64,000 nt of DNA from an uncultured virus (IMG/VR IMGVR_UViG_3300030685_000002) (Duplodnaviria > Heunggongvirae > Uroviricota > Caudoviricetes). Positions 9,298 to 62,300 of the stretch are shown here, one piece after another. Both the position numbers and the translations under genes were made by a program. Every line of letters starts with the position of its first letter. The stretch's first letter is position 1. The notes beneath the pieces were generated by a model that saw nothing but the letters and a program-made list of their open reading frames with translations, was not told where the DNA came from and did not search any database. The stretch lies in the IMG/VR virus record IMGVR_UViG_3300030685_000002, one strand, 5' to 3'.

Positions 9298-9361
9298 GAT
9301 CCCATACATTTGTTCGATTGAGTAACTAAACTTCAATACTACCAGTGTACAGACTGGTCTG

Positions 9362-9585
9362 TGATCTAACCCGGATTCGAACCAGGATGATTGTTTTACT
9401 TTCGTATCGTTGGAGCCGTAGTGTTTCATTCCCACTCTTTTAAGTGTCGAAGCTCTATTTCAGACTTCTTAGATAATCATTTATCGAATATTCCATTCTC
9501 CTACCTAATCATTTCCTATTAGGCTATTATCTGAGCTCCCAATCAGTTACATTCTACTTGCGTCTACCAATTCCGCCATTAGATC
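9362..9585 (-). ncRNA. tRNA(Leu)-like RNA 2 with a 173-nt structured central insert
   Basis: Acceptor GATCTAA/TTAGATC-A, Leu-type D arm TGGCGGAATTGGTAGACGC, T arm CCTGG-TTCGAAT-CCGGG. Confidence 0.8.
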
Positions 9586-10485: not shown

Positions 10486-11229
10486 TTAAACTATTGTACT
10501 ACCAACCGTAGGAGTAATGTGATGCAAAATAGTACTCAACAAATACTGATTTTGTTCGTTGTTACTTACTTTACCATTTGCAGTAGCAAGTTGATCACGT
10601 AAATTTTGAACATTCAAATCATTGATAAGTGCGCGTGTTGCATTACCATCGGCAAGAATAGTACTCTTAATCTCACAACAGCATTGAGCCATTGCAGCTG
10701 CAGAAGCTGTACCTTGTGCTATGATTTGATTCGTAGCATTTTGTACTTGCATTGCTGAGCTATTGAAGCCTTGCAATGTAGTTGTGGTAAGGTTGTTGAA
10801 ACTGTTTAATTGTTGAAGAGCATTCTGATTTTGAGAAGCGGTAATATCTCTTCCCAATCCATTGATTGAATCCAAAGTAGTAAAATTAGCTGCAGCTTGA
10901 GCAGTTGCCAATTGTCCTATTTGTGTACCTACAGTACTAATACTTTGAGAAAGGTCAATAGTATCAGCACGAATTTGAGCTGTCAATGCTGTACCATTGA
11001 TTTGACCACCTAATGATTGTAATTGATTGTTGATAGCACCAAATTCAGCAACATTTGCATTATTGTTACCACCACCAAATAAACCACCATTACCATTACT
11101 TGCAAGAAGTGAACCAAGTACTAAACCTGCAACACCACCACCTACTGCTCCAAGACCTACTCCGGAACCCATTGAACTACCACCGCCTAATGAAGCAGCT
11201 GGCAACATACCGTCTAACGTTAAAGCCAT
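10486..11229 (-). CDS. Glycine-zipper membrane segment + long Asn/Gln coiled coil with CCCE motif
   Basis: GVGLGAVGGGVAGLVLGSLL ... AMAQCCCEIKSTILADGNATRALINDLNVQNLRDQL. Confidence 0.8.
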   Translation of the reverse strand: MALTLDGMLPAASLGGGSSMGSGVGLGAVGGGVAGLVLGSLLASNGNGGLFGGGNNNANVAEFGAINNQLQSLGGQINGTALTAQIRADTIDLSQSISTVGTQIGQLATAQAAANFTTLDSINGLGRDITASQNQNALQQLNSFNNLTTTTLQGFNSSAMQVQNATNQIIAQGTASAAAMAQCCCEIKSTILADGNATRALINDLNVQNLRDQLATANGKVSNNEQNQYLLSTILHHITPTVGSTIV

Positions 11230-11269
11230 AATATATAGTTTTTAATTGCCAACTGAATTGTTGACACCT

Positions 11270-11307: not shown

Positions 11308-11601
11308 TTATAGCTTTAGTTGTTTCTTTAATTCTAATGCTTTTTTTAAATCTGAAACATAATATGATTTTTCACGAAATCCTTTTACTTTACGTGGTTC
11401 AGGTATTATACCATAATCTTTTAATTCATGAAACCTAGTCAAAGATACTCCCATAAACTTAGCAGCATCTTCTCGACCCATTGTGGTAGGTCTATGAATG
11501 AGTATTGATATTTGTTCTAATTCTTCATTAGTCAAATCTTCGCATTCATTATTCTCTATCATTTTTAATACAATAGAAACAATCTTATTCAAATTTCTCA
11601 T
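11308..11601 (-). CDS. Excisionase/MerR-like HTH DNA-binding protein with N-terminal helical domain
   Basis: MGREDAAKFMGVSLTRFHELKDYGIIPEPRKVKG. Confidence 0.75.
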   Translation of the reverse strand: MRNLNKIVSIVLKMIENNECEDLTNEELEQISILIHRPTTMGREDAAKFMGVSLTRFHELKDYGIIPEPRKVKGFREKSYYVSDLKKALELKKQLKL

Positions 11602-11626
11602 TATAAATAGTTTTTATTAATATTTG

Positions 11627-11707
11627 TGGGAGTGGAAGGACTTAAACCTCCGACCCTTACAACACATATTTCTATGCAGTAAACTCTATCTGATGAGCTA
11701 CACTCCC
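11627..11707 (-). ncRNA. tRNA-like RNA 3 with an extended GAAA-capped hairpin in place of the anticodon arm
   Basis: GGGAGTG/CACTCCC-A, D stem GCTC/GAGT, T arm GGAGG-TTTAAGT-CCTTC, central TTAC-TGCATA-GAAA-TATGTG-TT-GTAA. Confidence 0.75.
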
Positions 11708-11789
11708 TGTAATTGTTAGCTACCTAATAATTATTTGTCATTATTCTACACGACTAGATACGAGATAATTATCCAAGCTATTCCAATCA

Positions 11790-12056
11790 CTATTCAATCG
11801 GTAAGCCAAGCAATTTGGCATAGCGATTAAATACTTTAGTCTCATAAGGTTTGTCCTCTTCATAGACAACAGCACGTTTAAGCCATTTATCAAAGCATTC
11901 AGGACATACCCAATGATTTAGAACTGCAATAAATCGACCTTCATTAGAAGATTGATTACAATGATCACATACACCAAATCCACCCCATTTTAGGCATTCA
12001 ACAGCTGTAGTGTTTATTACTTTAAATCCTTTAGGATTCTCTACTTTGTATGCCAT
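11790..12056 (-). CDS. Zinc-finger protein
   Basis: CDHC...CPEC. Confidence 0.75.
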   Translation of the reverse strand: MAYKVENPKGFKVINTTAVECLKWGGFGVCDHCNQSSNEGRFIAVLNHWVCPECFDKWLKRAVVYEEDKPYETKVFNRYAKLLGLPIE

Positions 12057-12342
12057 CTGGTAAGTTTAATGGTGTTGTTAGACTTTGCATTAAATCATCA
12101 AGAGTATCATAAGCATTTATTGCATCAATTTCTTGATATGAACCCATGTGATAAATAACAAGAAATTCACCTTCTGGAACAATTTTATTGCTACTCATTA
12201 ATACTTCACATTTACCAACATATGTTGATATACCTAAGATTGCTTTATGTTCAATCTTGTTATTGTGCATGTAGAAGATTTTATCTTCTATTCCTTTATT
12301 TTCAAGCATACTATTATTTTTTAATATTAATTTGAAGTTCAA
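12031..12342 (-). CDS. Hypothetical protein
   Basis: ORF in the operon; true start may be MLENK (about 12309). Confidence 0.6.
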   Translation of the reverse strand: MNFKLILKNNSMLENKGIEDKIFYMHNNKIEHKAILGISTYVGKCEVLMSSNKIVPEGEFLVIYHMGSYQEIDAINAYDTLDDLMQSLTTPLNLPDGIQSRES

Positions 12343-13122: not shown

Positions 13123-13202
13123 AAGAATTTGTTTTTAAATGAATAATAAATAGTTTATATAAAGGAATAAATAGACAATAATAGAAATGAGCTATATTTA
13201 TG

Positions 13203-36644: not shown

Positions 36645-37628
36645 ATGTATTTAGTTATAACAGAACAAGTAGAAGTTGACGGTGAATTATTCTATGAAGG
36701 TGTTTCATGGAAAGATTATCATAAAGTTCCTGAAACAACAAAAACTATTAAATATGGTAGACTTTATAATTGGTATGCTGCCATAGATGATAGAGGAATT
36801 GCACCAGAAGGATATCATATTCCAACTATTGCTGAATGGGGTAATTTAGTTGATTATTTAGGAGGAACATATGTTGCGGGTGCTAAAGTAAAGGAACTTG
36901 GAGATGAACATTGGTTATGGCAAGACCCAAATACTACTAATGAAAGTGGGTTTACTGCATTACCAGGTGGCCAATATGATACTGTTAGTGGTTCTTATAA
37001 TATGCGTGGAAATGCTTCATGGTGGTCTACTTCTCGATATTCTACTAATCTTGCACTTTTTAGTGGCGTACAATTAGATGCTGATGTTTTTGGACATAAC
37101 CAAACTAGTTATTTAGATATAGGTTTTAGTATTCGATGCATAAAAGATAATGAAATAAATGAAGGTTCAGTTACAGATATAGATGGTAATATATACAATA
37201 CTATTAAAATAGGTAATCAAGTATGGTTACAACAAAATCTTGCAACAAAACATTATCGTAATGGTGATTTAATTAGTAGTAATTTTGCTGGAATAGAAGG
37301 AGCAGTTATAGCATATAATAATGATGAAAATAATGTATATAATTTTATTCAAAATGATATTAAAGGTTTTATTATTACTTATAATAATATTGATTATATC
37401 ATTCCAGATGATAAAGCTATTGAGACGCCACGATTTACTAGAGAACAGAATATACCATTTGGAGAGTATCAGTATCGTACTCATTCGGATAAGACAACAG
37501 AATATTTTGAACCGGTTGAAAAGTATTTTGGTATTGATATGAAAGAGAATTACTCGGCTCAGTTCCGTGATGGTATAAATCCTCATAAAGATATAAATGG
37601 AAGTATTTTCAAAGAAGACTCGGATTAA
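36645..37628 (+). CDS. Protein with circularly permuted Fibrobacter succinogenes major (Fib_succ_major) domain
   Basis: YGRLYNWYAA, PEGYHIPT.AEW, GFTALPGG, WWST, GFSIRCIKD, then VTDIDGNIYNTIKIGNQVWLQQNL. Confidence 0.85.
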   Translation: MYLVITEQVEVDGELFYEGVSWKDYHKVPETTKTIKYGRLYNWYAAIDDRGIAPEGYHIPTIAEWGNLVDYLGGTYVAGAKVKELGDEHWLWQDPNTTNESGFTALPGGQYDTVSGSYNMRGNASWWSTSRYSTNLALFSGVQLDADVFGHNQTSYLDIGFSIRCIKDNEINEGSVTDIDGNIYNTIKIGNQVWLQQNLATKHYRNGDLISSNFAGIEGAVIAYNNDENNVYNFIQNDIKGFIITYNNIDYIIPDDKAIETPRFTREQNIPFGEYQYRTHSDKTTEYFEPVEKYFGIDMKENYSAQFRDGINPHKDINGSIFKEDSD

Positions 37629-47336: not shown

Positions 47337-50300
47337 ATGGCTAACCAAGAACAAGAACAAACACAACCAGTAGTACCAACACTTGAAGAAAAATATCAAG
47401 CACAGTCTAGTGATGCATTTGTAGATCAAGAAGGAAATTATCAAGGAACAGTTGATGTAGTTGGAGATGCTTTAAAGAATAAGCAATCCACTGCAGATAT
47501 ACTTACCTCTATGGCGCATTCTGAACAGCCTATTTTCAACGATGTAAACTATTATGTAGACAAGTATTCAAAAGAAAAAAATCCTCTTGATACAGACGCT
47601 ATACCAGCAAGTCAAATAGTAAAAACTTATAATCAAGCAAAAATACAAAATGCTAAGAAAGTAAGTTTAAATAAACGTGGTGTTGATTTGGCCGCATTAA
47701 AATTTCAGAATGATGTACAATCACCGGAAGTAAGTGGTCGTTCAATGTCTGATAAGTATCTTGGCAATGTAAAAGACCTTACACCTTCTTATGCACCTTA
47801 TCATGATATTTTTCGTAATGAAGATAATGAACGTGGTACCGGTGAAGAACGTGCTTCTGCTGCTCCATATATTTTAAAGAATGGTAAACGTATTCCTAAC
47901 CCAGGTAAGGATGGAATGGATAAAATGTTTGGTGATGGTAAAGCAGTTGTAACAACTACTATTGACCCTACTAATGGACGTGAAGTATTTGATGTACTAC
48001 CATCAGATGCTTTTGTTGCAGGAGATAGACAGTATTCAACTAAGTGGGGTCCAAAAGAAACATTCGGTAGTTCTATTAAAGATTTCTTTGTAGGAGCTTA
48101 CAGTGCTGCAACCGCCGGTACTATGAGTTCCTTTTCTTCTGTTGGTGCTCTTTTTAATAATGCAATGAATCATGATGAAACTTATCTTTATAAACAAGGT
48201 AATGAAGCCATTCAAAAGCATTATGATAAGGTACGTGCTGCTAACCTAGCGCAAGGTAATACAAAAGCTGTAGAAGAACTTGATAAAGCATTTGAATCAG
48301 GAGATTATACCGCCATGAATCAAGCATTCAATTATTCTTATAGTTCACTTCCATCCAATGTAGGTAATTCATTACGTAGAGAAGCACAACCATTGAATTG
48401 GGCGAAAGGTGACAAAGCACTACAAGATTATTTCAATGAATGGAAACAAGCAGAGTTTAAACAATCAGCATCAACAGAACAAGGAACTGGTGCTATTGAT
48501 TGGATGGTACGTCAAGCTCCGACACTTGGTTATCTTCTTCCTCAGATAGCTGTAGGTATGGCTTCGGGTGGTGCTATGTCCGCATTAGAAGGAACTGCTG
48601 CATTTGCCGGTAAAAGTGTTGCAACAAAAGCTTTGCAGTATGGTACTGAGTTTCTAGTAAATGCTATTGGTACTTCACAGTCTTATAGTTCATTTCAACG
48701 TGTAGCTGATGAAAATGGTGTTAGTCCGGAAACAACTGCTAAATTTGGATTCTTTGCTTTACCATTGACATACGTTACTGAACATTTTACAAATAAATGG
48801 ATTGGTGAACAACTAGGACCAAACATTGCTGAAAAGGCTATGAGAGAAATCTATGCTCCAATGGCTCAAAAATTAGCTGCTAAAGAAGCTGCCGGTACAC
48901 TTACTGACAAGACTATTAAAGAAGCTGTTTACGATAGTTTCTCTAAGATATACAATAGCAAATTCATTAAAGGTATTGTTGACAATGAAAGTTATCTTGC
49001 TAATGTAGCCAAAGCAAATGTTAGTGAAGTCTTTCAAGAAAATTTTGAGCAAGCATTATACAATACTGTTCAAATGCAAGTTGATAAAGCTGCTCCAGCA
49101 TATTCCGAAGTTGGTAATGGACAGATAGGTACTACTGGTGTATTTGAAGGATTTTCAGATACTTCTTTAGGAACCATATTTGCTACTACTTTAATGACTG
49201 CTATTACTGGTGCTGTTCCTCACGTAATCAAAAAGATTAAAGGTATTCCCGACAGTAAAACAGAAACTCAACAAAAAGAATTACTGAAATGGAAAGTTCT
49301 GAAAGGCCAAGGTGATGAACTTATCAATATAGCTACTGATCATATTCAGAAACCTGATGGTGGTATGTGGGGAGTGAAAGATATCCTTATCAAAGATGCT
49401 ACTGTAGGAGAACAATTTGATCCAAGTTTATTCTCAGTACCTAAGAGTCCATCTCTACAAAAATTGGGATATCAAGAGGGACAATTAATCGACAACTTCG
49501 CTGAAATGAGGTATGTCGAATTTGTGCAATTAGTGGACTCGTATAAAGAGTTGAATGAAAGTATGGGGTTGAATGATGTTGATAGAAACATTCTTTCTCA
49601 GGCTGGATTTGATGGTCAGATATCATTAAACAAATCTGGTCAAGCTTTCATGGATATGCGCGATAGTAAAGCTGCTATTGAATCATTTCAACCAAAAGAA
49701 GCAGGTGCTACTGCTACTGATGAACAGATTGCTCAACTTCAAAAAGAAAATGAAGAAGCTAAGCAACCATTAGTTGATAAGTATAATAAAGCTTTATCTG
49801 AATACGAGTATTATACTAAACGTGAAGAGGGAACTCAAAACTCTAAAGCGGCCAATGACTTGATGAAACGTAACGTTACCGTTATGAAACAAGTTGAAAT
49901 GGAAATGCAAGCTCTTACTAACTCAAAAGAGTTTACTCGGGAGATGAAAAACGATCCTAACTTCCAACGTCAATATGCTGCATCATGGGAGAATGTAATT
50001 AAGAAGAACTTTACGTATGAAAACATTGAGAACTTACGTCAACGTGTAGATGAAGCTGCACAAGCTCAACAGACACATGCTAATGCCATTATTAATGATA
50101 TAGATAACCAAACTACTCATGCAACATTATCGAGTGATTTAAATGCCTTACAACAACGAATAGGTGATACTCTTTCAAAACCGTATAATGAAGCTGAGCA
50201 TAAATCATTGATTACTGATGTTGCCGGATTGTCTAATCGTTTAGCTAAAGAATTATCTGTATTCAATGACCAAACAAGTGGAAATGTATTTGGTACTACA

Positions 50301-53300
50301 ATGGATAATAGTAAACTTGATGAACTTAAAAATAAGTTTTCATCAATGTATGATGCTGCAAAAGGACTTACTTCTAATATCGCTCAGCAAGCAGAAGGTA
50401 AGATTCTTACTCCGGCCAATGAAAAAATTGATATGTATGGTAAACGTGTTGCTGAATTGGAACCATTCATTACTACTAAACAATCTGAATATGATGCTCA
50501 ATTAGAAACTATCAATTCTTTACCGGCGGAAACCAGCGATGAACAACGTCAACAAGAAACTGATAAGCTAAATGCTATTCAACAAGAATTGAAACATTAT
50601 CAAGATGAAAGTCAAACTGCTGCAGAAGAAGTAGGAAAAGCCGAACGTACAATTGAAAGTTTTGATGATGAACAATTCTCTCATGATAATCAGTTGAATG
50701 CTGCTGCACGCGCGCTGGGACTTGAAAACGTAAATAATCAATACTCTTCATTTAATGGGAAAGGTAAACTTCCATTTATGCGTATTGATGGACAGACATT
50801 AGAACATGCTAATGAAACTCCGGAACAATTTCAAAAACGTATTAAACTAATGCGTGAACAGAATACTCCAAATGGTAAAACATTTTTGAGTAATTACTTC
50901 ACAGAATTACAAGATACGATGAAAGAAGCTGAGGTATGGATTAATTCAGTTCTTACTGACCAGGGAGAAACTTATAAGAAAGAATATCCTGATGGTAAAT
51001 TTTATGGTACTAATGGTTCTGAAATCATTCGTCAAGAGATTGATAGAGTAAAAAAGAATGAACATTTCCTTTATACTTTCAAGACTTCTGAACGTATTGC
51101 TAATGAAAAGAAAGTAAGTGATCATCAGTCACAACCGGAACGTGAATTTGTTTCTGAATTGGCAAGTAAAAATGCTAATGGTAACAATACCTATGAGATT
51201 CAATTACGTGATGCTATACGTATGGCTGATGAACTTGCAAGTAAGATTGATGGTGCTGACTTGGCCAATCAAATGTTACGTTTGCATAGTCGTGTTATCA
51301 TTCATGAGAATACATTCAAGAGTGTTCAATTATTTACTACTCTTGGATTACGTCGTTCTGATGGCACGCAAATAATCAGTCAGAACTTAATTGAAGAATT
51401 AAATGCTATTGGAGAACTTGATCCATCTATTCTTGATGCAAAAGGACAACTTACCGAAGCACAACTTACTCAGTTATCTAAAAGAGAGAATATCGTAAAC
51501 AATATCCTTTCTGAAATGAATGTCGAATATAATAAAGAAAATTCTGAATTATTTTCTAAGGACAATCAAGATTTGTTGTTTGAGATATTCCGTGAGTTTT
51601 ATGTTGCCAATGATTCTATTGGAGAAGATGGAAAAGTACTTAATTCAGAAGGTACTCTTTTACATGCTGATGATTCATCTTCACATATTGGAGAGAATGG
51701 TTCATTGACAAATTCTACTCGTGAACTACATGCCCGTAATCCATTATTTACTATGGAGAATGTTGGTGGTGTTTCCAAACGTAAATACAATTTTTCCAGT
51801 TCTAATGCAAATGATATTACCCGACTGCGCGAACACTTGAACACGCTTATCTGGATAGGTAGTAAATACAGTATGAACGATATGTTCAAGATACGAAAAA
51901 TGATATTTACTAATGAGTCAAATACACCATTAGAAACGGGAGAACAAGAAGCTGCAATCAATTCAATAGTTGGACTTTTAAGCAATAAAACGCTTACAAG
52001 TCCTTTGTCGTTATTTGCAAATTACTTTTTACCTATGCATTCAATAGCTACTGAGAAGGGTGGCCATCACTTCATAGAAAGCTATCTAAGCAATGCATTG
52101 ACTATTGGTGGAGATTATGGTACTGGAAAGACTCAGTTCACTGTAGGAAGAGCATTTAGAATACTTCGCGGACTTGATGGATATAGTACTGATAAGAAAT
52201 CATCAGTAGGTAAACTAACAGTAGTAAGTATTACGGAAGAACTTTCTAAGGTACATAAACAATCTTTTGGTGCTGAAAATCCAACAGTAATATCATATAC
52301 TGATTTTATCAAAGGAATGAAGAGTATGAATACTACAGAAGGAAATACTTATGTTATTGATGAAGCATCACTTGTTTCTGAAAATGAAATGAAAGCTATC
52401 AAAGAACATTTTGTAAATACAAAAGCCAAATTAGTATTCATGGGTGATGTATTCCAAATGCGTGATGCAGGTTCTGTAGGTCATTATCCTTTGATGATGT
52501 TGCAGACAATGACTACGCACATGCTTACTGAACAATTTAGTGCTACTTCTCCATTACTTCGTCAACTTGCAGAAGCATGTCGCCCGGCTATTGGTGCCAT
52601 TGGTAGAATAGTAAAGTTTGATAAGGTGACAGAAGATATAAGTGGTAAGACTAAATTAGGAGCGCGTTTCTTTGCATCACACATGGATGTATGGAACTCG
52701 TTCATAGATGGTCTTGCTACCAATCCGGATAGAGCAGCTATTTTCTTAGATCAGGATGCACTGGATGCGTTTACTAAAGACAATGATACACTTAAAAAAC
52801 AAATAGAAGCAAATAAGGATAAAATCTATTTTGCTTTACGTCGCGGTGTCAATGATAATAAACTACTGCAAGGATTACGTCAGAAAGAAATCTATGCTGT
52901 ATTCAGACAGTCTGATAGTAGTCAGATAGCAAAACCTATTACTACAAGTTTAATGGCCTCAGCACTTTATACTGCTATTGGTCGTTCTAGCTCTTGGTAT
53001 GGTATGGTTGGTGATACTTCTTTGAATGTTGACCGTTCTCTTGCTGCATCTACTGGTTTACCGGAAGAAGCATTGAATGCTATTCAGCTACAACAAAAGG
53101 AAAAATTCAGAGCTATTGAAACATTGCGTTTACAGGGTTTAAATACTGATATGAATAGTATGAGTATGGAAGCACAGAAAGTGGCAACAGCACCTATTGC
53201 TAACCCTACAGTGACCACTCCAAACCCTAGTAATAATAATCAGAATCAAACTTCGGGTAAAGAGGTAGGATTAAAGATTAATTACTTTAATGCTGATGGT

Positions 53301-56300
53301 GATTTAATAGATACTGCAACAGTAGATGCTGATTGGGAAATAAAGAAAGTTGGTAATCGTGATGTCCTTTCTATTAATTGGAATGGTCAAACAAAATTCA
53401 ATAATACTATTGATCCAAATATTTCAATTAAAGATAATCTTATCAAACATATTACGGGTTTTGAAAGTATTCTTCGTACAAGTCAATCAACAGAGAATCC
53501 TATTACATTAGTAGAAGAAAATTCTGTTGAAGATTATGAACATAAAGGAACTGCATTAAAGGTTGGTGAAAGTTATTATGACAATAATGAAAAAGACATA
53601 TTTCAATTATTATCTATCAATGAATCTGTATTCTCTGATGGCTCTACTCAGTATGAGATAACCGGTATATACCCTGACGAAAATCAAACAGTATCAACAG
53701 TACTTTCAGATAACGAAGATTTCTCGGTACCTACTGCAATCATTGAAGAAGTGAAACCAGTTGTTCCAAATGAAGTAAGTCAGTTATCGCGTGAACGCTT
53801 CTTGAACAACTCTACTGCTATATTCGATAAGAACAAAAACAAGTCACATATTTTCTGGGCTACCAGTGCTACTTTAGTTGGTGCTAGCGATAGTTTAAGT
53901 CAAGAGAATGGTAAGTTACGTCGTGCAATAAATGACGCCTTTATATCGAACCTATCACAGTATAAACATTTGTTTCAATTAAAAGCTGAGAAACAAAATA
54001 CTACCGGATGGGATAAGGATAATAAGACTGCAAAGTACGATATGATTGTTCTTTCTTTTGATCCAACTAACAAAGGATTGGTAGGAGAACAGTTACAAGC
54101 CATTCAAGATATCTTTATGGGAACTATTGCTGAGGATTATGTAAATGCCATTATTAAAAAGCATTCAGTAAATCCTAATGGTACATCTATAAAAGCAATG
54201 GATATACCAGTATATTCTATCATCAATGACATATTTACTACTCCGGGATTAAATGGTGGTAAGTTTTCCAATGCTATTGGTTCTATGACTCTACCATCAG
54301 TTATTAGTATTGATGGAAGTGGTAAGATTTCTTATACTTCATTTGATGTAAAGGAAACTGAACTTGAAAAACAGAAAACTGAGAAACAACGACTAGTAGA
54401 TGCATGGAATGCTGTTATCAATAATCCTATTTTCGCACCGGTTCAATCTGAATTGATTAAACAACGTGATATGAACATGTCTATCTATGATACTCATGCA
54501 AGTATTACTGATAAGGTAAATGTTGATTTTCATGATATGGGTATTCGTAAAGTAGAGTATTCAAATAATGAAAGTGATTTGACAACGGTAACTGATTTGT
54601 TGAAAGACTTCCCTGGCGCACAAACTGATATAACTCCATTGTATATTGATGGCAGATTACGTTTAAATGTTCAATTAAATAGTAATGAAAGTATTCGTTT
54701 AGTAGTACAAATGCCTAAGTTTAGCCAGTCTATTACTAGCAAGAATGAAACCATTAAACAGCGCGCAAATGCTTCTATGGATTCTATCATTGGACGTATT
54801 AAGGCAGAAGAGGACTTTATTTCACAAGAAATATTATCATCTACTATTTTATCAGATGAACAAAAGTGGAAAGCCAAACAAACAGCATTCTCAAAAACTA
54901 CTATTTATAAATTATTGCGCGCGAACCTTTCTACTTTAAAGAACTCTACTCAGGCAACTGATAAAGCAATCTTTGCATTTATTAAGATTCAGCAAAAAAG
55001 TAAAACATTCTTGGATATCAATCTTGATTCTTTCAAGACAGATAAAGATCGTAATAGTGGTTTTGATTCACAGTATAAAGAACTAAGTGATTTTCTTTCT
55101 AAGAAAGATAATCTTGCTATGTCCGGATTATATGATTTCTTGACATTAAACAATGAAACTTATACTACTCATGTTAGTGGTAAAGAAACTATTGATATGC
55201 TTAATGTACAAGCTTTGGGCATAAACAATAAATCATTCTATGTAGGTCTTGATAAAGTAGAACCAATAACTTCACCAACTCCACCAGTAAATAAACCGGG
55301 AAAGAAAAAACTTCCAAATATAGGACTTGAAGAAACACAATACTCTTCTCCTGATGTAGAACCTATACAACAGTCAATAGACCGTGTTGCTTTACGTTTA
55401 GGACAGTCTTATACTGAATCTGAACTATTCCTTACACAAGAAGGAAAGATTCGTTTAAATGGTCTTACTGCAAGTGGTATGGTACAAGATAATACTATCA
55501 TGACATTAGCAGCAGAGAATGGTATGATGCCACGTTCTACAGTTGACCATGAAGTATTACATGTTGTCTATCGTAACTTCATAAATACTGATGCTAAAGC
55601 AATGCTATTACAAGCGGCCCAGGTAATCAACAAGTATGAACAAGGAACACCTATCAATGGTGATAAAGAACTTGAAGAATGGATTGCTCGTGATTATGCA
55701 AAACAAGAACGTGCGACTACTAAAGACAAGAATGTAAATATTGCTTTGCGTTTATACAATCAGTTCAAGAGTTTCTTGAAAGATATCGTTATGGGACTTC
55801 GCGGTGTATATGGTTCAAACAAACAGTTGAAGAACTTATACAATCAAATAAACAATGGCGAGTTTGCTAATAGGGTTCCAGAAATGAATACTGAAAAATC
55901 AGATATTGCTTTTGAAGAATATGAAAGTGATACTACTTCTGAAGAAACAGTACAATCAACAAATGAAAGTTCTAGCAAACGATTACTTATTGCCAGTCAG
56001 ATGGAAGAAGCATTAAAGAAAGAACTTTACAATACTGAATCATTAGTTATTGCTAAGTCCGGACTAAGAATGTCTATACTTCAAAACTCTATTTTCTCCA
56101 ATACAAAAAACAGTAATATTAATTCATTATCGGAAAGTATTAATTCTATTATTGAAGAAGGAAAAGAATATCAAGAATTGTATGGTGAAACTATGGCCAC
56201 TGTTATTACTCAAAATGAACAAGGAGAACTTGAAGAAAATGAAATGGCAGTAAAAGATATTGTTGAGAATGGAGAACCTTTGAATATTAAACTTTCTGAT

Positions 56301-59300
56301 ATCAATGGCCGGAATAGTATTGATGCATACAAAATCTATTCTGATAAAAATATTAGAATGATTGTGCAGACTATGCTTCCATCATATGATATGATGAATG
56401 ACTCATTTGAAAAAGAAGTGGGTGCCGGTGAACGTTTTGATTGGGATGGTTATTCTTCTGAACAGAATGTTTCCGATATACAAAAACTATATCTTAGTTC
56501 TATACCACTTATCAATACAAATGGTAGTGCTGTATTTGATGCCCGCGGAAAAGTAAAGTTCTTAGATCAGAAACAAGTTCATTCATTGATGATAGACCTT
56601 GGTATGCGAGTAAGTCAAATGGATGGTGTTACTGATAAAGTATCTGCATTAAAATCTATTATGGAAGGATTCATTGATAATTCTGAAATTGATGAATCAA
56701 ACAGATATTTGAATCCGGCAGCCGAAGTAATTCATAGCATGTACAACTACATGTTTGAAGCAAAAGGTAAAGGAACTGATTTCTCACTTGACTATTCTAA
56801 TCATTATATCTCAGAAGAAAACTATGATGGTCGTTATAAAGGACTACTTGAACGTTCTTATCAAAATGAACAAGAATGGAAACAAGAAGTAGGAGCGCAG
56901 AACTCTGATGCTACATGGTCATGGGATGCTAAACAAGAAGATCAAAAACGTAAGATAGAACAGGCTAAAGACCTTTTAAATTCATTGGTAAGTGTATATA
57001 CTTCTTTCAATGTAAAAGACCAGGTTAAGTTCACTTACTATGATGATACTATGAAGTCTACTCATTACTATAAAGACTTTTGGAGAGGTACCGCCGAAGA
57101 GATTAAACGTATTCAAGGATATAAGATTTTGAATGGTGAGTTGAACACAAATTCAATATCATTCTTTAAAGAAAATATGTCTATTGACTATACTGATATT
57201 AAGGTAAGCCGGTATAATAATGTTACTAATAAAACTAGTTTCTTAAAATACGAAAATGGTAGATTCAAATTTGCAAATAAAGAAGGTGTTATTGCTACAT
57301 CTAAAAAGTTTGGTAATACTACTATGTCACCTTTCTCTACTGATATGCTTAATACCAAAGGAGAATACGCGCATATAGTAGACATCTTTAATCGTATCAA
57401 AGGACAGTTTGCATTAAAAGGTGTTACTCCGGCCATGTTCAAGAGTCTTATGGTTGCTAATAGTTGGTCAGAGGTTACTGATAATATGAAAACTATTAAT
57501 AAGATTGGATATGTAAGTAATTTCAATTCTGAGATACAAGCCAATTATGCTACTCCATCAGATTTTATGGCTGATTATTTAGGTGCCATGATTACATTGT
57601 ATAATCAATATTCTAAAAACTATACAGAAGAAACTTTAAAAGCTAATGAGGACATTAATAAACCGGCTAAGAAAGTTATCATACAACGTAACCTATTAAA
57701 TCATATTCGATATAATACAAAAGAAAGTTTATCACCATTGACACGCATCCAGAGTATTACCGGAAGTGATATAGTTCTTGGCTTCCTAAATAGAACAACA
57801 CCAAAGAACCTTATTACTTTTGAAGTACAACCTGACATTGTAGAAAATGAAGAGATAACTAATGATGTATCTTCTATGAGATATGTTACTCCGGAAGATA
57901 TGTTTGTATCATCAAATATGATTGCTTCTATACAGCAGAAACTAGGTGGACAAACAAATGATACCCATCGTTACACAGCTAAGGGTACAGCCACTTATTC
58001 AGTTGCTTTAAAGACTACACTCAATGAAGAGTTTGATGCCTTTAAACAAGACCCTACAGATACAACTAAGATTACTGGCTTTATAGAAAGTATCGGAGAA
58101 AACCGTTCACTTGGATTTACTTCTATTGGAAAAACAAAAATTGATACTTCTGACTTCATTGACACGAGTATCAACATGTTTATGCAAGAAATGGTAAAAT
58201 CAAAAGCTCGGCCGGTTATTTATGTTCCTACTACAACAGTATCGGATACTGGTAAAATAATCTTTGCCAAAGTAGAGTCAACACTTATCAATACCGATAA
58301 TGGTTTTAATATTGATTATTCAGTTGCCGGAACAGAAGTATTACGTGAATACGATAAAATCAAAAAACGTATTAATACTTCACGTTCAAATCTGAACAAC
58401 GCACTTATGGAGATAAACAAATCATTATCTACCAAAACGAAGTTCTTGAATGCACCGGCAGAAAATAATGAAGCTCATTTTACCAAAGGATTACGTAAAC
58501 AGATGATTGATGTTTCCAAAGAAGCTCAAGCAAATGGTACTTTTGACCAATTACGTAATATGTTTGATGCAACTTCTCTTACTAAAGATTTAAGCGGTAA
58601 AGGAAGTTATGAACTTTCTTATGAAACAGTTGATGGTATTGATGTCATTATACCAGGTAATGCAGTAACCGGTAAAATAGATCAATTCAATATGATTAAT
58701 AAACAATCAAAAATTGAAAAGATTAGAAGTCTTACTAATGATGTAAAGAGTGGAAAAGTAGAAAGTCTTCCTAAATTGGAAAGAGCTATCATGCGGTTAT
58801 TTGAAAATGACTTTGCTAAGTTTACTGATATGATTGCGAACTATGGTTTTAAACCGGTTCAGTCAATGAATAATCTTACCAAAAATACTATTGGTGATAA
58901 AAACCCAACAAATACTACTGATAAGAATCCGTATTATCAACAACTTGAAAAATCAGAGATACGTTTTAATCAACCTATGTTTGGTTTCTATATGGCTACT
59001 ATGTTTGCCAATAATCATATTGATGATTTTTCATTGAATCCATTCTCTTTCAAGAACTATCTTGATAAGGTAAAACGTAATGGTCCTATTCATACACCGG
59101 CACAAAGTGTACTTACCCAAGGAACGAAAGAAGTTGTACAGAATAATGTAAGATATCAATTACATACACCTACATTGACTACAGAAAGTCCTATTGTATT
59201 CTATAGGGATAATATGGTTGATGGTGGTAATACTTATCAAGAAATTGATGGTCAAAAAGTATTGGCAAATAATGGTAATATGATGAAACCGGAAGATGGT

Positions 59301-62300
59301 CAGATAACTATTAATCCATTCCATTACTTGCAGACCTTAAACTCTATTGGTGGTACTAAAACAGTAATTGGTAATGCTTCCATGTATAAAGGTCTTACTA
59401 ACTTTCGAAGAGCTGATGGTACTTACTCACAGATTAAACGTGGGGATAAAGTCATTACTGGTTTTGATATGCAACATACCTACTACCGAAATATGTTTAT
59501 GCGTATGCTTGCTGAAACAGATCGTCAGTTAGTTGCTAGGGTTGGTGAAGAATCATTTAATGAAAACAAACTTTCATTTACTGATAAGTTCAAAGAATTG
59601 TATGATGATAAAAACAATCAAAAAGAGTTTAATGACATCATTGTAGATATGATGAACTGGATAGATAACCAACAATACTATCAAGATAGAATAACTATTA
59701 ATCCTGATGGTATAGAACGTGCCGGACACATGTACAATAGCATTGTGGCTTTCATGGCGCCAGTATCTACACAGAAAGGTTCAGTTACCTCAGTCAATAC
59801 TTACGATGCCTTAAATGACGTTGATTACAGTCAGCCATTAAACATGGATGTTGTGGATAATACCAAGACTAAGATAGTAATGAATCCATCACAAGATACT
59901 GATATCAATGCAAAACTGCAGGCAGCACCATCACAACAAGATGCTACCGGTTTAGGTGTTAGTAATAATCCTGAGATATCAAGTCTTTACAGTGCTTATA
60001 TGGAGAACAAACAAGGACTTCAAACAGCATTACGTAAAGAACTTGAAGAATCAATATCTAAGTATGGAGAAGTAGAAGCTGCAAAACAATTCAAAAATAT
60101 TGATTGGTCTAAGTATGATGTTTCTACACTTACCGAACAACAAAAATCAGAAATTGATCCAGCAATAAAACAATTGATGGACTTTATGCGTGATCGTGTA
60201 GTAAATAGCTTGCGTACTTCTGGACAAGATATGGCATTCATTGAATTATTCAGTGATATGGATGTTTCTATGCAATTGCCTATGATGCGTTCTAAAGTAC
60301 TACAGTCATACCGTAACATGGCCAATCAATCTATTCAAGCAAGAACAAAAGGTATTCGTCTTACACAAACTGTTGGAGAGTACTTAGAAGAGTTTGTACG
60401 TGATGGTAAGATATATTCTCGTAATGATGCTATTAATGAATTAAGACCCGGTACAAATTATCGTGACTATTCATTTGATGAATATAATAGTGATGCTATG
60501 AATCAAGAACTCGCTGCTGCAGGATTTACTATGCAACGATTACAAGATATGAATATCGTAAATGGTAAAACTACTGTTGGTCATATCTCCATGCCAAATG
60601 TATATGCTAAAGTATATGGTCATAGAAGTAATGAATCATTGATAGACATTCAACATATCAATTTGGGTACTGAAAGAATTGCATTGGACAGTTCTAATTT
60701 ATATGATAAATTAATGGCCGGTCTATCTGAGGATGCTGATATGTCATTGAATCAATGGAGTGCATTTGTAGACTCACCAATGATACGTAAAGCTATCAAA
60801 AACTTGAAAATAGAAACGTATGTTGATGAACTTATAAATCCTTCTGTTGATAATGATGGAAAGCGTTTTATCAGTAAACGTATTGCTAACTTGATTGATA
60901 GTACTAGAGAAATGACTACTGAGGAATTACAATCAGAAGTAAATGCTACTAATGAATCAATCTTAGAAGCTATCAATTCAATGGAACTGCAATCTACTGA
61001 CCTGGCTAATCCAGACAAAGTAATTGCTGCATTAATGGGTAGTGGTGAAATACTCGAACAAATTCTTACTGAAGCACAACAATTATTGAAAGATTTTGAA
61101 GAATCAAATACTTCATTCTTATCACGTGTTCCGGCAACGTTCTTAGGATCGGGTGGTGTGTTCAAAACAGCAATGTTTCATAATGGTGGTAACGTGGTTT
61201 ATATCCCAACGGGTATGACATTACGTAATGACTCCGATTATGATATTGATGCATTGACAATGTATTCTAATTCTCTTGATTCTAAAGGCCATATTATTCA
61301 AAAAGGTGCAGATGGTCATAGAAACAAAATGAATGCCTTACGTAACACTATTACGCTTCATAGTGGCAATCAAGAGTCTTTATTCCTTACCTCTTCATTA
61401 GATAAGATTAATGAAGTGATGAAACAGAAAGAAAAATTAGTAGATAATTTACAGAACAACTCTATTCGTTCTATCTATGAATCGTATTCAAGAAATAAAG
61501 CCGGTGCTGATGCTATTGGTATTCTTGCTAATTCATTGACAGTATCGTCCATTATTATTTCAAGCTCAGTAAATAAGTTTGTAGAAACTGGTACCCATTC
61601 TGGAATACAAAACTTTATCAATGAGAATGCACCTAAAGGTAAAATCAAGACCGGTCTGAATGGTTTTGTTATTGAACTAGGAACATGGGGACAAGGAGCA
61701 TTGGATAATGCCAAGAACAATACATTCGCGAACTACGCAATTAGTCCGGTTGGTATCAATATTCTTGCAGTACTGAAATTGAATGGTATGAATAATAGTG
61801 AAGTGTATGATTTCTTTAATAACAAGAATATACGTAATCTATTCCATACTTACTCTGGTAAGACTTCTATAATGACTAAGAGTGCTGACTTCAATCTTTG
61901 GAAGATGGCCTCAACAGAAGTGGATAAAATAGCTTCTCGTATTGAACATTTCAATAATACCAATGTATCTCAATGGTTAGAATCAAAAGGACTATCATGG
62001 AAAAGTAATGTTCATGATACAGAAAAGTATTCATTAGAACTTGAAACAACTGATGTATTATTACAACAGTCTATTGATGATCTTCTAATGAAAGAACTTA
62101 CTTCATATTATAAAAACAATAAAGAAGCATTCAAAAATAGTCCTTATGACTTTACTGGATCAGATAAAGAACAATTACTTCAACAATGGAAAAAAGATAA
62201 TGGATTTGATGATGAAAACCTATTTACTTATAAGAACAATAAAATTGTTTTTGATAAAACTGATGTATCGAATTTTGATATTAAAGACTTGGATAGCATT

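Follow-up and report, generated by a model that had tools for sequence, protein, structure and literature searches.

The 64,000-nt stretch of DNA analyzed here (the window; IMG/VR virus record IMGVR_UViG_3300030685_000002, an uncultured member of the Caudoviricetes) carries, within a leftward block of small genes, an 81-nt tRNA-shaped gene that is read on the minus strand from position 11707 to 11627 (5′ GGGAGUG...CACUCCC-A 3′) and is co-oriented with both flanking genes. The original prediction, made from the letters of this DNA, had placed the element directly upstream of a helix-turn-helix (HTH) gene of a "CCCE module". The ATG of a 97-amino-acid open reading frame (ORF) with a weak match to phrog_668 indeed follows after 25 nt, and the residues CCCE are encoded in the next ORF. 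The features of the locus, in the direction of reading, are as follows.

11790..12056, minus strand: Cys-rich protein, 88 amino acids (phrog_22392), upstream of the element at a distance of 82 nt; first anchor of the slot described below
11708..11748, minus strand: about 41 nt directly upstream, nearly invariant across all three slot alleles; candidate promoter or 5′ leader
11627..11707, minus strand: tRNA-shaped gene, 81 nt (RF00005 37.9 bits; cloverleaf z = -3.18; strand-specific fold)
11701-11707 and 11628-11634, minus strand: acceptor strands (cloverleaf)
11683-11698, minus strand: D arm (cloverleaf)
11657-11682, minus strand: closed extended "anticodon" arm (ensemble and suboptimal folds)
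11652-11656, minus strand: variable region (cloverleaf)
11635-11651, minus strand: T arm (cloverleaf)
11627, minus strand: discriminator A (cloverleaf)
11602..11626, minus strand: 25-nt spacer from the discriminator base to the ATG of the HTH gene (sequence)
11308..11601, minus strand: putative HTH protein, 97 amino acids (weak match to phrog_668, E 1.9e-4)

The minimum free energy structure of the minus strand is a cloverleaf in which the acceptor stem (7 bp), D stem (4 bp), and T stem (5 bp) are all paired as in a canonical tRNA, in line with the intact stems of the original prediction. At -27.1 kcal/mol it is far more stable than dinucleotide shuffles of the element (mean -17.4 kcal/mol, z = -3.18), none of 200 being equally stable. 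The complementary strand reaches only -16.2 kcal/mol (z -1.3 versus -3.2 for the minus strand). A local scan with the Rfam tRNA model RF00005 scored the element at 37.9 bits (E = 1.8e-6), above the family gathering score of 29 bits, and an identical score was obtained for the copy in the nearest genome (G001). The alignment spans model positions 1-71 and treats the anticodon-arm region as a local insertion of 23 nt compared with 15 in the model. Within the T loop, UUUAAGU, U54-U55 and A58 are present and U56 replaces C56, with A19 as its partner in the D loop; the Levitt position holds a non-standard U15.C48, and no CCA is encoded after the discriminator base. Routine annotation misses the gene. 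ARAGORN at default settings calls neither a tRNA nor a tmRNA in the 64-kb window and makes no call at 11627-11707 even when introns are allowed or the threshold is relaxed, and an Rfam run over the whole window at gathering thresholds returned zero matches, its speed filters hiding such elements.

In place of a 17-nt anticodon stem-loop, nucleotides 26-51 of the element form a closed hairpin. The dominant register, with an ensemble probability of 0.91, consists of four base pairs (U26-A51, U27-A50, A28-U49, C29-G48), a U30.U47 mismatch, five further pairs (G31.U46, C32-G45, A33-U44, U34.G43, A35-U42), and a GAAAUA hexaloop. The GAAA tetraloop proposed earlier, capping TGCATA and TATGTG, does exist as a register, yet as a minor one that takes up about 0.05 of the ensemble. 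Among 134 suboptimal folds within 4 kcal/mol, loop sizes in the arm are 6 nt (113 folds), 4 nt (14), and 8 nt (7), and a 7-nt loop never occurs, so that a canonical arm, with a 5-bp anticodon stem, a 7-nt loop, U33, and a purine at position 37, is absent from this set. Both the lengthened arm without a decoding loop and the absence of a canonical alternative fold, on which the original prediction had been staked, are thereby upheld. Folded alone, the arm reaches -5.7 kcal/mol on the minus strand and -0.3 kcal/mol on the plus strand; this strand specificity is due to its G.U pairs and points to a feature of the RNA rather than to a palindrome in the DNA. Since the window contains the arm sequence a single time, a repeated or mobile hairpin was rejected.

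A hidden decoding loop was searched for by removing every contiguous segment from the arm with floating arm boundaries (270 combinations), with 2000 shuffles for comparison. Lenient solutions retain at least four of five stem pairs, U33, and a purine at 37; strict ones have all five pairs, a pyrimidine at 32, and standard spacing. The element yields no strict solution (44/2000 shuffles reach one) and six lenient ones, a count equalled by 879/2000 shuffles and thus at chance level. The arm contains only 7-9 extra nucleotides. With no 7-nt loop and no excision that performs better than chance, the element reads as the non-decoding tRNA mimic that had been proposed. We conclude with high confidence that it is a genuine tRNA-derived gene in which a closed 24-26-nt hairpin takes the place of the anticodon stem-loop and which, as encoded, cannot read codons.

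The source of the tRNA body was traced by BLAST against 301 Bacteroidota genomes, 142 of which gave matches at E <= 1. The best is the tRNA-Ile(GAU) of rRNA operons, identical at 25/29 positions over element nucleotides 53-81; a CAU-anticodon tRNA labelled "Met" by ARAGORN follows with 21/22 over the variable region and T arm. By its anticodon loop and T loop, we take this CAU tRNA to resemble the AUA-reading tRNA-Ile2. Outside the arm, the body can be assigned with high confidence to a Bacteroidota-type tRNA-Ile. Compared with tRNA-Ile(GAU), acceptor pairs 4-69 and 5-68 have changed on both strands and are still paired, pairs 10-25 and 50-64 are now G.U, and A19-U56 stands in for the tertiary pair G19-C56; all 16 frame base pairs remain intact. 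Among the 138 true tRNAs collected, 127 have C at position 56, about 10 of the 138 being mis-registered by the crude rule used.

Related contigs were recovered by anchoring on the two flanking proteins, Cys-rich and HTH (genomes carry G numbers and loci L numbers). One and the same slot between these genes holds three dissimilar tRNA-like genes, none of which has a normal anticodon arm:

Window type (the window, G001, two IMG/VR contigs, two metagenome contigs, L035): 81 nt, RF00005 37.9 bits, closed 24-26-nt hairpin
L006 type (L006 at 2863-2932, L007, L009, L032, L033): 70 nt, 52.9 bits, perfect palindrome CAACAU-UUU-AUGUUG
L010 type (L010 at 2863-2970/L013, L034): 108 nt, 55.8 bits, 51-nt arm with an 8-bp stem continuing into an inner hairpin

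Identity between lineages amounts to 71-90% in the flanks and 32-58% in the cassettes. A phage of the L010 type has a capsid protein 100% identical to that of the window together with a different cassette, which indicates that the cassette changes between otherwise near-identical phages. In L035, the single D-loop substitution relative to the window (U15 to G15) gives a standard G15-C48; the protein at the Cys-rich position upstream is only 69% identical to that of the window, and the HTH gene travels with the element across this recombination boundary. A metagenome contig of 148,266 bp, from which L030 and L032 derive, contains a window-type and an L006-type slot about 86.8 kb apart, which suggests two related genomes of ~86 kb joined in assembly, or a concatemer. 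Collectively, these comparisons establish with high confidence a swappable cassette slot in the leftward block, of which the element is one allele.

The two other alleles have bodies of different origin. The L006 allele matched 34 of 121 Bacteroidota genomes at E <= 0.01, and the top six alignments were all to tRNA-Arg(UCU), with 53-55 of 74-76 columns identical; the anticodon has changed from UCU to UUU and three nucleotides have been lost. Its first 14 nt equal those of the window element, and the allele probably arose by recombination between two tRNA genes, with the junction at the conserved GUAGCUCA box. A close relative with a normal tRNA would have pointed to recent decay, and ARAGORN does call a tRNA-Lys(UUU) in the L006-type slot. 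This call has a mismatched acceptor stem (5-68 G.G, 6-67 U.G, 7-66 G.U), lacks three nucleotides, and carries a shortened anticodon stem within its palindromic arm; because its body is Arg(UCU)-like and that of the window Ile-like, the sister "tRNA-Lys" is not the ancestor of the window element. The L010 allele has a tRNA-Ala body. Its 26-nt 5′ half is common to 120 cellular loci, 119 of them typed by ARAGORN; the 3′ acceptor strand that gives G3:U70 is found in all nine tRNA-Ala genes among these and in 0/110 Ile, Val, or Lys genes. G3:U70 and A73 complete the full alanine identity set within a perfect tRNA-Ala frame around a well-folded 51-nt arm. By the alanine identity rule, alanyl-tRNA synthetase (AlaRS) would presumably charge this RNA whatever its arm. 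The allele is reminiscent of the tRNA-like domain of tmRNA. Its excision test gave 13 lenient solutions (102/2000 shuffles) and no strict one (16/2000 shuffles).

Presence of the element follows the HTH gene in the closest sub-lineage only. Five of ten scanned loci (L017, L018, L020, L021, L022) have no tRNA in the slot next to an HTH homolog that is 52-76% identical, so co-occurrence with the HTH gene, suggested earlier as a check, holds over a short evolutionary range, and no tRNA was found in the slot of L036-L041. Among relatives retrieved via the capsid protein, a tRNA-model match occurred in 0/17 and 0/16, mostly fragments that probably do not include the slot, G033 being complete. In the distant relative G005, ARAGORN called canonical tRNAs at 19 of the 20 cluster matches listed; insertions are therefore not general in the wider group. 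Among GenBank phages, a 1-kb query returned nothing, and queries with the 81-nt element and with the 108-nt gene of L010 returned only generic tRNA matches of partial length, no record reaching >=80% coverage.

In another intergenic gap of the leftward block, ~2.1 kb beyond the element on the same strand, lies a second tRNA-like gene:

9361..9585, minus strand: second tRNA-like gene, 225 nt (ARAGORN in intron mode only; sequence and fold)

It has a perfect 7-bp acceptor stem (GAUCUAA/UUAGAUC), a D arm of class-II type, a canonical T arm, and a middle part of ~140 nt. The L006 lineage harbors a 110-nt allele (L006:4964-5073) with a 36-nt insert; between the two alleles, the T stems have diverged by changes that keep the pairs. 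The Rfam tRNA model does not match the window copy and scores 13 bits in L006. Removing 36 nt from the L006 allele gives one strict solution, AUAGU|CUUAUAC|ACUAU, which 9/2000 shuffles attain; the product is a canonical tRNA(UAU) with a perfect 5-bp stem and the loop CUUAUAC (Y32, U33, A37). The same allele has nine lenient solutions, a number equalled by 239/2000 shuffles, and the window allele has neither lenient nor strict ones (strict in 7/2000 shuffles). The motif ACU(U)ACGG was seen by eye near the 3′ part of the inserts in L010:2863-2970, L006:4964-5073, and window 9361-9585 (minus strand). With introns allowed and a lowered threshold, ARAGORN further reported a tRNA-Ser(UGA) with a 33-nt intron at 37451-37578 on the plus strand, inside the ORF 36645-37628; this call is most likely a false positive.

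Judged by its sequence, the source of the window is a crAss-like phage of ~86 kb. The window encodes a Crassvirus major capsid protein, muzzle protein, tail ring protein 1, terminase, and portal, and these markers, like an ORF of more than 5,500 codons, are all open in the standard code; that ORF (47337-63998, plus strand) has at least 5,554 codons and runs past the window end. The nearest genome, G001, comprises 85.7 kb and is rated 100% complete, with the element as its sole tRNA-model match. The genome has a GC content of 32%. Most relatives of the Cys-rich protein come from phages that infect Bacteroides, Porphyromonas, or Elizabethkingia, and some are found in Campylobacter phages. This distribution, together with an element body whose nearest cellular counterparts are Bacteroidota tRNAs, makes a Bacteroidota host probable. 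Sequencing runs containing the window DNA are labelled peat metagenomes: a run search returned 24, of which 23 are peat-metagenome contig sets and one is an RNA run with 4% of the sampled words. Alignment of four runs to the window revealed no joints, no variant letters inside 11627-11707, and no read ends, and the RNA run matched only about 11897-12071, outside the element.

Downstream of the HTH gene, the block continues with the ORF that gave rise to the "CCCE" label:

10486-11229, minus strand: Gly/Asn/Gln-rich protein, 247 amino acids, with the residues CCCE

A hydrophobic stretch is present at its N terminus; the protein has only a marginal match to phrog_9288 (unknown function; E 7.5e-4) and no family in Pfam or PADLOC, and its DNA contains an 18-nt direct repeat family. 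The 16 neighboring proteins include no defense or anti-defense family (PADLOC) and nothing tRNA-related (Pfam, PHROGs, PADLOC). No intrinsic terminator was found near the element. Sigma-70-like sites around it are at chance (7 found, 5.7 expected), and the upstream stretch 11708-11748 holds only a weak sigma-70-like match, again at chance level; its 20-nt core occurs once in the window, and a repeated promoter motif was accordingly rejected. An AT-rich motif, roughly TAAAAACTAT.TATAATG in minus-strand reading, recurs before start codons of the leftward block at 11599-11616, 11227-11244, and 13143-13163 and may represent a shared translation-initiation or regulatory context.

Several known RNA classes were considered and set aside. 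Beyond the tRNA family, the element matches no Rfam family. A group I intron lacks an Rfam match and would be expected to add roughly 200 nt or more, compared with the 7-9 nt present. A tmRNA is contradicted by the absence of an ARAGORN tmRNA call, of an Rfam tmRNA match, and of a tag reading frame, and a phage rescue tRNA by the missing anticodon loop, without which the codons of a host tRNA are not decodable. An archaeal- or eukaryal-type tRNA intron was rejected on the excision results together with a search of the two complete phage genomes, neither of which encodes the splicing endonuclease (PF01974); among 14 control genomes, this profile matches only the four archaeal ones.

The reading that we tentatively favor, at less than even confidence, is that the element is a non-decoding tRNA mimic kept for its upper half and cut from an early transcript by tRNA-processing enzymes. 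The processing or stability leader put forward in the original prediction is plausible and agrees with this reading. RNase P, the enzymes maturing tRNA 3′ ends, and the CCA-adding enzyme recognize the stacked acceptor and T arms and the elbow, and do not need the anticodon arm. The parts that are kept, the acceptor/T-arm stack and the elbow between D and T loops including the compensated A19-U56, are those used by these enzymes, and the element may thus be read as a tRNA-shaped processing module. It would be transcribed together with its neighbors and excised at G1 and after A73, a cut that, at a distance of 25 nt before the HTH gene, would separate or trim the message and set free a stable small tRNA-like RNA. 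On such a scheme any tRNA body, whether of Ile, Arg, or Ala type, could fill the slot, decoding would be unnecessary or even harmful and could be lost or blocked in all of the alleles, and another gap of the block could hold the second tRNA-like gene, whose middle is variable. The observations in favor are a real tRNA frame, an RNA-strand-specific fold, the non-decoding state, a constrained frame, cassette behavior, co-orientation 25 nt before the HTH start, and the absence of an intrinsic terminator.

Non-decoding mimics handled by tRNA enzymes include the tRNA-like domain of tmRNA, viral tRNA-like structures, mascRNA-type elements, and mitochondrial "tRNA punctuation"; they are recognized by RNase P, and tmRNA also by AlaRS through G3:U70. 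As in these, the acceptor/T-arm and elbow are kept here and the anticodon arm is replaced, and the L010 allele has the same G3:U70/A73. Unlike tmRNA, the element has neither an mRNA-like domain nor a tag frame and is a free-standing 81-nt unit with normal 5′ and 3′ ends of the acceptor stem.

A number of points weigh against a processing module. The constraint on the frame could predate loss of the loop, and all window-type copies, some of which may come from overlapping data, are identical save for the substitution in L035, which leaves the allele free of internal covariation. From a fixed cis signal one would expect conservation along with its flanks, not swapping; swapping between near-identical phages fits diversifying selection better. 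The partly mismatched acceptor stem of L006 fits decay better than a processing role. The element is also dispensable, since no tRNA-model match occurs in the complete relatives G004 and G033 or in 31 further related records, most of them fragments.

Next in probability, and in our view possible though unlikely, comes a young pseudogene: a phage tRNA-Ile acquired for codon supply in an AT-rich genome would have lost its loop through indels and now be drifting, the slot being a site where captured tRNAs decay. All alleles are indeed defective decoders, L006 with acceptor mismatches and missing nucleotides in addition, and most of the positions that differ from cellular tRNA-Ile have gone from G/C to A/T, the direction in which drift would act at this base composition. 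The non-standard U15.C48, where L035 has G15-C48, the low model score beside the 52.9-55.8 bits of the sister alleles, and the dispensability in relatives point the same way. Drift does not readily account for the intact frame, in which 0/16 pairs are broken and three changes are compensated on both partners, nor for the arm, a strand-specific, ordered helix of 9 bp reliant on G.U pairs, which would have required several coordinated changes; the L010 allele, moreover, keeps a perfect frame around its folded arm. Prokaryotic tRNA pseudogenes and fragments, the subject of a preprint (bioRxiv 10.1101/2022.07.05.498093), share with the element a similarity to the tRNA model without a usable anticodon loop, and differ from it in that the element is full length, fully paired, with compensated changes and an ordered arm. 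The earlier statement that paired stems exclude a simple pseudogene is reasonable and at the same time unproven, as a recently inactivated gene would look alike.

Somewhat more doubtful is a trans-acting RNA that serves as a decoy in anti-defense, which would bind a host tRNA-directed defense protein, a nuclease or modifier gripping the tRNA body, as a substrate made unproductive by the closed and lengthened anticodon arm, with the slot swapped under diversifying selection. Variation of the slot between near-identical phages is typical of accessory and anti-defense loci, three isotype bodies occupy it (Ile-like, Arg(UCU)-like with UUU, and Ala-like), and in the otherwise tRNA-free complete genome G001 the element is the only tRNA-model match. 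Published reports describe defense nucleases that recognize or cut the anticodon arm and phage tRNAs that escape via altered or shortened anticodon stems, as with the T5 tRNA-Lys that escapes PARIS AriB (PMC11464382) and a phage tRNA-Thr acting against P2-OLD (PMC12445682); anticodon-loop variants of phage tRNAs are also on record (PMC10264068). The likeness lies in a phage anticodon stem-loop that departs from that of the host, as in the L006 allele with its UUU anticodon and shortened stem, and the difference in that those tRNAs decode and replace a cleaved host tRNA, whereas the window element, having no anticodon loop, offers no translation rescue. All published cases are decoding rescue tRNAs rather than decoys, the closed hairpin removes the very feature read by anticodon nucleases, no defense-related family is found among the 16 neighboring proteins, and the literature search produced no case of a stoichiometric RNA decoy of this kind. 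More broadly, and with similarly low probability, the slot may hold interchangeable anticodon-less mimics acting in trans, either as decoys or inhibitors of defense proteins that grip the tRNA body and attack the anticodon arm, or as chargeable, non-decoding carriers, the latter being considered because L010 keeps the full alanine identity set.

We regard as very unlikely a small intron of unconventional type whose post-transcriptional removal or remodelling would yield a working tRNA, as was proposed for tRNAs of the Lak megaphages. The "enigmatic" tRNA introns of these phages, which infect Prevotella, are the closest published precedent (Devoto et al. 2019, Nat Microbiol, PMC6784885). Both cases concern phages of Bacteroidota hosts (a probable one for the window) with extra sequence in the anticodon region of a tRNA and no known bacterial mechanism of removal, with the same insert identical wherever it occurs and present or absent between close relatives. 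The two cases also differ: Lak genes could be typed by isotype and anticodon after intron prediction with eukaryote settings, whereas no excision restores a loop here, and Lak megaphages carry 30 or more tRNAs, compared with just one gene of this kind, placed in a swappable slot, in a ~86-kb crAss-like phage with the standard code. The strict solution of the L006 second-gene allele (9/2000 shuffles) and the presence of RtcB in the host phylum, evident from matches in the Bacteroides controls, speak for an intron. For the window element, however, no strict solution exists in 270 combinations and the six lenient ones are matched by 44% of shuffles; the extra sequence is too small for a group I intron and belongs to no Rfam family; no bulge-helix-bulge was seen by eye, no formal search having been made; and splicing endonuclease, RtcB, and Rnl2-type ligase are each absent from both complete phage genomes. 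An attP site or other DNA-level feature derived from a host tRNA gene is close to refuted: tRNA genes are common integration targets and the L006 allele resembles a hybrid of two tRNA genes joined at the GUAGCUCA box, but tyrosine integrase (PF00589) and serine recombinase (PF00239) each have 0/2 matches in the complete genomes, and the element is a full-length tRNA frame, not a 3′ fragment, with an RNA-strand-specific structure.

Phage tRNA genes are usually explained by codon supply or by rescue from tRNA-cleaving defenses, both of which presuppose an anticodon that works. The phage described here retains tRNA-shaped genes that are unable to decode and that are exchanged between near-identical genomes; no anticodon-less tRNA-shaped gene in a swappable slot of crAss-like phages was found in the literature searched, subscription journals and bioRxiv supplements lying outside that search. 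Because the gene escapes standard tRNA finders as well as routine Rfam scanning at gathering thresholds, such elements are probably under-counted in viral metagenomes. If they are functional, the tRNA shape alone would be useful to phages, either by offering host processing enzymes a handle or by baiting tRNA-directed immunity, and the unexplained "tRNA introns" of Bacteroidota phages would need re-reading. Should these RNAs act in trans, they would, together with the second interrupted gene and similar elements of Lak phages, represent a new class of RNA-based counter-defense in Bacteroidota phages.

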